Source: Octopus vulgaris
Taxonomy: Eukaryota
DNA: 64,000 bases
Assembly (NCBI GenBank): GCA_951406725.2
Contig: OX597817.1
Span: forward strand, 26,722,001-26,786,000
Reading direction: 5' to 3'
The notes under the pieces were generated by a model, which worked only from the letters and a program-made list of their open reading frames with translations, had not been told where the DNA came from and did not search any database. The stretch's first letter is position 1. Each line of letters begins with the position of its first letter. The position numbers were made by a program, and so were the translations under genes. Of the stretch, positions 17,291-19,705 are shown one piece after another.

Positions 17291-18972
17291 TTTTCTACTG
17301 TAGCCCTTGGCTGACCAATCTTTATAAGTGAATTTGGTAGACAGAAACAGCAAGAACCCTATTGTGTGTGTGTGTGTGTGCGTGCACAAATGTGTGTTGA
17401 ACATTGTTATCCTATGCTATGTTTAAGCAAAAGAGTGATGTTGTTGATATTTCTTATTGATATTATGGCCTGTCACTTTGTGCTTTGAAAGTCTCTGTAA
17501 AAAAATAAAACCTTTACTTGAAAAACAAGTAAGGATTGGTGATAGTAAGAGCATCAACGTGTAAATCCTGATTCAAATAACTCTTCATCTAATCCATGTT
17601 TGTGTAGAAAAACAGACATTAACCCTTTAGTGTTCAGATTAATTTGTCAAATGTAATGCTTATCTGTTCACATTAACTTTGATTTATTCAGGTTCAAGTG
17701 GGGTGTTCACAATATTTTTTTTGTAACCTTGTTAATTTTCTACATACAGATTTGAAACTTTGTAAATGGGTGCTTATATGCCAGTGGTTTATAATTATGT
17801 AATTTTAGCTGATCTTTCTGACTAAATTTGACTTTTATGGGCAGGTGAATTTAATTAACAGGTGTAAAAACAATAACATTATGAATAAACACTAAAATTC
17901 ATATTCTTAATACATCTTACCTGTTTGGTTTGCTGCTAAAATTATCCCAGATGTCAACTGCCAACAATTTTACATTTTTCAAGGTGAGGTACATTAACTT
18001 GAATTAATTAAAATACAGGTGTAATCGGTAGAAGATTTTACTTGTTTTCTATATTTCATTCAAACGTCATCATTGACTATGTAGTCTTTCATTTCAAATC
18101 CACTTTTCTAATCTTTGTATGCTTGCATGTGTGTGCGTATATGCCTGTGTATATAAACCATAAAAAGCCAGAAAGTATGAGCGGTGGATACATTTATTTA
18201 ACCACTTCATTATGGCCATTTCATAATCTTTTTTATGCAATAAATTCAATGAGGTTGAAATTATGCTTACATGTTTACATTAATATGTATGCTTTGCAAA
18301 TCACTGCAAATAAGAAAATCTTCACAAATCTCAACAAACAAGAAAAGCTAGAACATTATGGTTATACTAATGATTCAAATTTAAGTATACACACAAAATT
18401 TTCTCTTTATATTTACGATGTATGGGAGGCTGGGACTACATTAAATCAGCTTTGTTCGGTCAGTAAAAATGAAGATAGGTTGTTTCATATAAATTAAGAA
18501 ATTAAGATTCTAGATGATAAAAAGAGGAAGTGAAGTAGTTAAAGTAAATATAAAAATAAATAAGCATGTAAAAATATATATAAAAAGATAGTACAAATGA
18601 ATAAAATGGGGAACAGATATATGCATTGTGTGTGTATGTATAACAGTAGCAAAGTTATTTCCAAACAAGTAGATCTAGTTATATGTTTTAAAAAACATAT
18701 TTTATCTTTTATTTATAATTTGGTTTATGTCTAGCATTGTTTTAATTGCATAATAGTGGTTTTACTCTAATTTATATATTATATATTTATATTGTGAAAT
18801 TTCATTTCATACTAAATTGAATTTTTCCCTGTAAGTTTGGAGTTATACTCCCTAATATTATTATTGTTATTTTATATATATATATATATATATAGATTCA
18901 AATGAATATGGTACTAAATTTAGATGCACCAGAATTCTGTATGGAGTTATCCATATAAATCCGTGGGGTGAT

Positions 18973-19139
18973 TATAATAAAAATAAGCAACAAGAATGAC
19001 TCTGGTAATTTGGTACGAGCATTTCGTACTACATCATTTGATTAAATGTTGTAATACTTACAACATTTAATAAAATGATGTAGTACGAAACGATCGTACC
19101 AAATTACCAGAGTAATTCTTGTTGCTTATTTTGATTATA
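18973..19139. repeat. 82-bp-arm palindrome with 3-nt loop (TAC, 19055-19057), made of a Penelope-like terminal sequence, between (TA)n tracts
   Basis: Arms 18973-19054 and 19058-19139 are reverse complements with ~5 mismatches; contains GAAACGATCGTA (hammerhead 3' half). Confidence 0.85.
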
Positions 19140-19705
19140 TATATATATATATATATATATATATATATATATATATAAGAGAGAGAGAGAGAGAGAGAGA
19201 GAGAGAGAGAGAGAGAGAGAGAGAGAGAGAGAAAGAATATTTTGCATATATACTTTGAATTGAATCATTCCTGTAATTGTGATATTCTGGTGACCTGATG
19301 AGCTAGCTTGCATTGATCAGTGAATATAAAATTGTATTGTGTAATGTCAAGTATGAATATTAATGCAAACCTGTAAGCATAATTTATTCCACACAGAAAT
19401 TAGTTCTATATAAAGAAGGTTGTGAAATGGCCATAATCCTAAGGATGTCAAGTGGTTAATTAAATATATTCACCTCTCATACGTTTTGACTTTTTATGGC
19501 TTATATACTCCACATGAAATAATTTCATTGATCAGATCTACTGGATTCCAGCTGCATGGACATTCTACTTCCTGCTTCTCTGTACTAGATTACTATGTGG
19601 ACTGTTAGTTGAGTCAGTAAGCAGAGCCTTCTGCGATAGCCACAAAATGCTCCGAATCTATCTCTTATACTACTCACTCATGTATATATATATATATATA
19701 TATAT

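Follow-up and report, generated by a model that had tools for sequence, protein, structure and literature searches.

Insertions of Penelope-like elements (PLEs) typically have, beside the 5' end, an inverted and 5'-truncated copy, together with a one-sided tail of 30–40 bp and a (TA)n target, according to the accessible parts of PMC8557442, and palindromes at such inverted junctions have been interpreted as self-priming (PMC3846280). The accessible portions of PMC11167929 report that a PLE protein nicks and extends both strands, with two adjacent RNA start sites bracketing the tail and uncleaved RNA as substrate, and that the start sites used by a Poseidon-clade RT in vitro are not homologous to the cut DNA. 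How PLEs construct inverted, tailed insertions is still posed as a question in PMC8557442. PLE hammerhead ribozymes have a helix II of 7–8 bp with a conserved G10.1-C11.1 pair and a short helix III with a palindromic loop (PMC4209133, whose accessible part also mentions hammerhead pairs on opposite strands, 100–700 bp apart). In Octopus vulgaris, 31 recently active Penelope-like families are described in PMC13282606; neither "palindrom" nor "hammerhead" was found in its accessible text.

Here we describe a 245-nt hairpin insert (18895–19139) set within a TA repeat of O. vulgaris, in a 64-kb window (the whole stretch of DNA analysed) that is rich in AT and microsatellites. Like EN+ PLEs (Penelope/Poseidon, Neptune, Nematis, Hydra, Naiad; PMC8557442 and PMC3846280, as far as accessible), the insert combines a head-to-head copy with a palindromic junction, a one-sided tail and (TA)n, and Penelope-13_HM is likewise annotated with an inverted copy. 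It differs from EN+ PLEs in that it holds only the last 163 nt of its element, which is known from this 3' end alone, in its tail of 78 rather than 30–40 nt, and in its apex at the hammerhead core. With the type-I hammerheads of PLE pseudo-LTRs (PMC4209133; PMC8557442 File S2) it shares an 8-bp helix II with G10.1-C11.1, GAAA, a 2-bp helix III with a palindromic loop, a U-H site and a position near the 3' end, but it has the 3' half only, its helix II carries a 5-bp extension, and it does not match the octopus Hydra element tabulated in the accessible sources. Non-LTR retrozymes, which are non-autonomous PLE derivatives (10.64898/2026.07.22.740005, in the part available), are also short, non-coding and presumed to be PLE-mobilised, with a type-I hammerhead; they form head-to-tail tandems with complete ribozymes, whereas the insert is head-to-head and lacks the CUGAUGA half, and the window holds no tandem array of the insert unit. 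The inverted duplications of L1 twin priming and small hairpins (10.1101/2024.12.14.628481, in the part available) similarly involve a self-annealed 3' end with minimal microhomology, but there the host flank is mostly what is duplicated and the twin-primed halves do not overlap, whereas the insert duplicates its element's own 3' end.

Layout of the insert and its linear relative

The insert, its target and its relative comprise the following features:

18873–18894, no strand: (TA)11, presumed to be the left half of the target microsatellite, by direct reading
18895–18972, minus strand: unpaired, one-sided 78-nt tail, the true element 3' end, belonging to the long copy, by homology to the linear relative
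18973–19054, minus strand: left (tailed) arm, element sense on the minus strand, with a hammerhead 3' half carrying two substitutions
19026–19057, minus strand: complete hammerhead helix II of the tailed copy, by fold and helix score, with the conserved G10.1-C11.1 pair
19055–19057, minus strand: 3-nt apex loop TAC (GTA on the minus strand), reading as the first three helix II bases, G10.1 and the next two
19058–19139, plus strand: right (tail-less) arm, sense on the plus strand, with intact GAAAC, palindromic 4-nt loop III and GUA at 19087–19098
19136–19236, no strand: (TA)21 then (AG)29, right part of the compound microsatellite target
11899–12110, minus strand: linear, diverged relative with decayed hammerhead nucleotides, its 3' end beside a short TA run (11883–11897)

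The preliminary description had placed the (TA)11, the 78 nt, the 82-bp arms, the TAC loop and the entry of the right arm into (TA)n exactly. The (TA)21 spans 19136–19177 and the AG run 19178–19236, so that the final 4 nt of the right arm (TATA) are common to the arm and the repeat. In the arm alignment, the 82 bp differ by 5 substitutions and 0 gaps. The palindrome scores 67, compared with maxima of 10–15 in 10 block-shuffled windows, none of which held a qualifying palindrome, and the hairpin RNA folds with z = −17.7 (0 of 200 shuffles as good). The tail, present on one side only, is about twice the 30–40 nt published for PLEs; it folds weakly into two hairpins (z −1.9), and with z −0.3 for the tail of the relative we claim no conserved structure there. 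The insert at both ends, and the relative at its 3' end, adjoin TA runs, with no poly(A). No second palindromic copy of the insert occurs within the 64-kb window, nor are there direct pseudo-LTRs or partial tandems at the insert locus, as expected for so short a copy.

A scan of the window for short-loop palindromes kept 54 centres, 50 of low complexity and 4 with complex arms. One of the latter (20185–20251) is a symmetric palindrome with 32-bp arms and a 3-nt loop, placed at one end of a repeat of which the second copy (59733–59983) lacks it; the pair is possibly an empty-site comparison. The fourth (51071–51151) has a 7-nt loop, is partly TA repeat and resembles a Helitron-associated hairpin. 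Separately, an old inverted duplication (about 18096–18402 versus 19236–19547; 213 of 329 columns identical, 0/200 shuffles) brackets the insert off-centre.

The linear relative shares sequence with both parts of the tailed copy. Aligned minus strand to minus strand, the tailed arm and 11899–12110 are identical in 100 of 156 columns (score 75, 0/1000 shuffles); the tail alone matches in 38 of 56 columns (1/1000 shuffles), and the arm alone was equalled by 0/1000. When the 3' part of the relative was slid over 2554 windows, the insert gave the best non-self matches (65 and 63, against 41 for the best unrelated one). The two 3' ends lie within about 5 nt of each other in the alignment, both at TA runs, and the relative, which is non-palindromic, is absent from the 4 complex palindromes. 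Arm and tail thus form one linear element end, so the asymmetry of the insert is inherited from a linear parent. A flanking segment of the insert, tried as a third family member, was borderline (86/2000 and 230/2000 shuffles) and was set aside.

The relative had been introduced as a non-palindromic copy with the full CUGAUGA core. Homology and core nucleotides are there, with CUGAUGA (12096–12090) and GAAAC-GGUC-GUA 57 nt apart, but the adjoining helices are not paired: in helix I, 5 of 8 positions pair and the mismatches are interleaved, in helix II only 2 of 8 pair, and 69/300 shuffles equal the motif. A working hammerhead in the relative is therefore unsupported, and the earlier claim of a full core goes too far. 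Its stretch CUGAUGAU-UGCC...GGCA-U (12079–12096, minus strand) resembles the 5' halves of Hydra-clade hammerheads, with the stem TGCC/GGCA and a shortened loop. This Hydra-like pattern, picked after inspection of the sequence, has 1 match in the relative and 0/100 in shuffles; the local fold of the stretch is no better than shuffles, and it may be a separate decayed ribozyme.

The hammerhead half and the fold point

The motif GAAAC-GATC-GTA, placed in the arms by the preliminary description, is intact only in the right arm (19087–19098); the left arm has two substitutions within it. The window contains 7 sites of GAAAC-N4-GTH; in 3 of them, 19087 included, the N4 is palindromic. This 3' half lies about 120 nt from the element 3' end, a distance within the range of (TA)n-targeting PLEs in the accessible supplement table of PMC8557442. 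No CUGANGA core is found within the insert, which holds only the 3' ribozyme half with a full helix II. With the CUGAUGA half missing the insert is not an active ribozyme; judged from its sequence, it codes for nothing and is unable to self-cleave.

Directly 5' of GAAAC the arm is predicted to form a hairpin of its own, and the reading of the apex loop decides how this hairpin closes. On the minus strand, arm and loop together form a helix of 8 bp plus 5 bp that a G-C pair closes at GAAA (−9.6 kcal/mol, z −3.9, 0/200 shuffles), versus no closure in register for the plus-strand reading (−6.1 kcal/mol, 5/200 shuffles); the helix II scores are 8.5 and 2.0, respectively. Because the loop on the minus strand completes helix II, the point of truncation is the first base of this helix, at the ribozyme core. 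The loop would accordingly be parent sequence of the tailed arm, a reading that rests on 3 nt and would arise by chance about 5% of the time (our own arithmetic, at 30% GC and for either orientation).

Rfam returned no hammerhead for the window among the best 150 of 420 matches and none in the right arm or in the relative (11899–12110). This silence carries no information, since Rfam also passed over a complete hammerhead, at 24867. An Rfam microRNA-precursor match over the apex stays under the family threshold (63.9 versus 90.8 bits) and reflects pairing only; hairpins of this type can be mis-annotated as MITEs or microRNA precursors.

The missed ribozyme is a complete type-I hammerhead (24875–24790, minus strand) with a CUGAAGA core, a 12-bp helix II, GAAAC, a palindromic loop III and GUA; helix I pairs at 6 of 7 positions, and it has the top score of 34 core sites (0/300 shuffles). 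It shows no similarity to the insert or the relative and no Rfam match. The second-best of the 34 sites is a near-canonical type-I hammerhead (59302–59347, plus strand), Hydra-like by eye, in which A replaces core G12. At 19283–19301 (plus strand) there is an 11-bp stretch, with 2 G-U, complementary to the post-cleavage strand of the insert, 1 nt before a CUGAUGA at 19295; it is the only non-self match among 25594 windows and is out of ribozyme register. We also considered a permuted ribozyme made of the CUGAUGA at 19295 and the right arm and rejected it: helix I is out of register, helix II is unpaired, and 272/300 shuffles score above the flank.

Elsewhere in the window are a Mos1-type mariner transposase HTH fragment (20910–21212, minus strand), a U6-like sequence (32838–32934, minus strand) just under the Rfam threshold (41.5 versus 44 bits), and a 184-nt unit repeated four times in tandem with 90% identity (31000–31740), possibly SINE-like.

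The large palindrome and the search for a parent

A second fold-back lies in the same window:

3895–10371, no strand: head-to-head palindrome of a 5'-truncated RT and GIY-YIG element, apex near 7208–7219, (TA)n at both ends

Its GIY-YIG domain is above cut-off, its Pfam RVT_1 match is weak and below cut-off, and among 74 matches its nearest protein relative, with 87% identity, is a named protein of Octopus bimaculoides. The translation shows a CX4CxxC linker and a CCHH motif, which point to Neptune or Nematis by the clade descriptions in the accessible text of PMC8557442. The large palindrome shares with the insert the order of (TA)n, arm, short loop, arm and one-sided tail, and the internal TA stop of the short arm; 4-mers of this kind occupy 3.2% of the 850 positions counted. 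Unlike the insert, it codes for RT and GIY-YIG, has near-identical arms and a 37-nt tail, on the right side only (10335–10371), and shows no sequence similarity to it. Since no CUGANGA occurs in its 3' region, the two have a common layout and differ as to ribozyme.

The preliminary description assigned the insert to a second, older family. That it is a second family is borne out: neither the insert nor the relative resembles the 3' region of the large element (996 and 1000 of 1000 shuffles score as high). Greater age is only probable; the insert arms differ at 5 of 82 positions and the large arms at 0 over 1367 and 680 aligned columns (unique stretches, 4 and 1 gap columns), a comparison that makes the insert family separate and probably older if arms are identical at the start.

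At the large apex the loop reads, weakly, with the tail-less arm, giving Ser-Gly-Thr-Ala-Met on the minus strand. In a comparison of the 17 named proteins among the 74 matches, 2 of them without the motif, S precedes GTAMG in 9 of 16 motifs, including all 3 cephalopod ones, K in 7 and A in none. The tail-less arm thus appears to own the loop, on 1–3 nt of evidence. A 9-bp hairpin, with a loop of 3 nt, is nested in the same apex, which also has a 9-nt direct duplication (7199–7228); we read the two as a trace of fold-back and slippage. To the right of the large palindrome, the microsatellite-rich flank contains an inverted duplication (10460–10700 / 11050–11352) whose unique core (10643–10695 versus 11053–11105) is identical at 52 of 53 nt.

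The insert is most likely the cut-short 3' end of a Penelope-like element; because no RT-coding parent was linked to it, we infer this membership. It carries no RT or endonuclease sequence and is truncated well 3' of any ORF. No match was found among the octopus Naiad and Hydra consensuses in the accessible published sets by motif search and by eye; the 3' ends of Naiad_Obim and Naiad_Ovul show no motif match at the element end and differ by eye, and Naiad_Omin is listed as incomplete. The consensuses of the PMC8557442 supplement, in its accessible part, were mostly compared by motif search, in a file whose line breaks can hide motifs. Prokaryotic genomes gave 0 matches to a 24-nt stretch of the arm. 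Candidates for the parent are autonomous PLEs (Neptune, Nematis or Hydra type) and non-autonomous derivatives resembling retrozymes.

Origin of the insert

What has to be explained is the 3' end of one hammerhead-bearing element, present in two head-to-head copies inside (TA)n(AG)n, both stopping at helix II, one with the full 3' end and the other ending at an internal TATA. We consider it likely that the insert is a dead insertion made by the PLE retrotransposition machinery. The GIY-YIG endonuclease would nick the (TA)n, and the nick would prime reverse transcription at the 3' end of an uncleaved RNA; the RT would halt after finishing helix II, at the ribozyme core; the cDNA 3' end would then fold back, with a single A-T pair closing a loop of 3 nt, and copy itself. 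The copied strand would be linked, at the internal TATA, to the opposite target side, through pairing with a (TA)n overhang or with a second short cDNA started there, and host repair would fill in the other strand, the arms having since drifted by 6%. In favour of a PLE origin are the defined 3' end that insert and relative have in common, each at a TA run, the PLE-type anatomy of the ribozyme half and its distance from the 3' end, the assignment of the loop to one arm, the published PLE layout and the proven RT and GIY-YIG element 9 kb away with the same layout. Against it stand the parent that was not found, the absence of RT and endonuclease, the unfolded hammerhead of the relative, the silence of Rfam, the 78-nt tail, the mere 3 nt behind the loop argument and the lack of a common ribozyme with the large element; the in vitro start sites described in the accessible part of PMC11167929 are, moreover, not homologous to the cut DNA, unlike the TATA pairing proposed here. 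The preliminary description saw in the two loci a recurrent asymmetric fold-back mechanism. The same layout does occur in a second family, but the implied surprise falls away: recurrence is expected, as the layout is published as typical of PLEs (PMC8557442, PMC3846280, in their accessible parts). The insert is a fresh example of a known architecture, and only the detail of its junction and fold point is unusual.

Host activity offers another route, to which we give little weight: a single truncated copy inserted first, and the inverted arm added later by replication or break repair, either by template switching or by self-annealing of a 3' end, with the TATA microhomology as its stop. Directly beside the apex there is an imperfect natural hairpin (helix II), inverted duplications occur nearby (18096–18402/19236–19547 and 10643–10695/11053–11105), and L1-induced breaks show self-annealing at small hairpins with inverted duplication (10.1101/2024.12.14.628481, in the part available); the old inverted duplication that brackets the insert keeps a host fold-back origin alive. 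The apex, however, sits at the base of the natural hairpin, whereas a fold-back on that hairpin would centre on its loop; the duplication is confined to the element, with (TA)n at both sides; and an RT-coding neighbour has the same layout, which is the PLE norm in the accessible literature. It is very improbable that the arms are the 82-bp terminal inverted repeats of a MITE or foldback DNA transposon that inserted at TA and lies next to the 78-nt segment by chance. The insert is indeed short, AT-rich, TA-flanked and nearly all self-complementary, Tc1-mariner remnants are present in the window (the Mos1-type HTH at 20910–21212), and MITE families of O. vulgaris are listed in the accessible part of PMC13282606, but the 78-nt segment and the arm are colinear in the non-palindromic relative, so that the terminal repeats are not symmetric, the hammerhead anatomy is present, and there is one palindromic copy only in 64 kb.

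That the host has kept the hairpin as a source of small RNAs against the element family seems to us highly improbable: its transcript would fold into an 82-bp duplex, yet the 6% arm divergence without compensation fits neutral decay, and the microRNA-precursor match at the apex is sub-threshold. Palindromes are difficult to sequence and assemble. A fold-back artefact of sequencing or assembly is nonetheless extremely improbable here, as the preliminary description had argued from the diverged arms: five clean substitutions without indels separate them, the contig runs on into unique sequence at either side, and a one-sided tail with an apex at a functional boundary is unlike chimeric reads. 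An artefact would be favoured by that difficulty, which the accessible part of PMC8557442 remarks for PLEs, by the A/C transversions that account for 4 of the 5 mismatches, and by the location in the left arm of all 3 mismatches that can be polarised (2 via the relative, 1 via the palindromic loop III).

Within the preferred PLE origin, a more specific model is, in our estimation, tenable but unlikely: the RT stops at the hammerhead core, which acts as a truncation and snap-back hotspot, and a dimeric RNP primes both target ends, one cDNA snapping back. The ribozyme fold would then yield tiny ribozyme-less hairpins, and with two RNA start sites the sense copy of the snapped-back cDNA would anneal to the other cDNA. 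The loop assignments, if right, to the tailed arm in the insert versus the tail-less arm in the large element, imply that both target ends are primed and one cDNA snaps back. We did not find this combination of RT stop and two-primer snap-back in the literature searched, in which subscription journals were thinly covered. If true, two-primer snap-back explains the short loops and either tail polarity.

The locus itself, a dead remnant, is of little weight. The occurrence of a very short fold-back with a readable apex and of a second family nearby suggests that the octopod genome may hold enough such junctions, and these natural junctions could be used to weigh self-priming against two-primer models without biochemistry.
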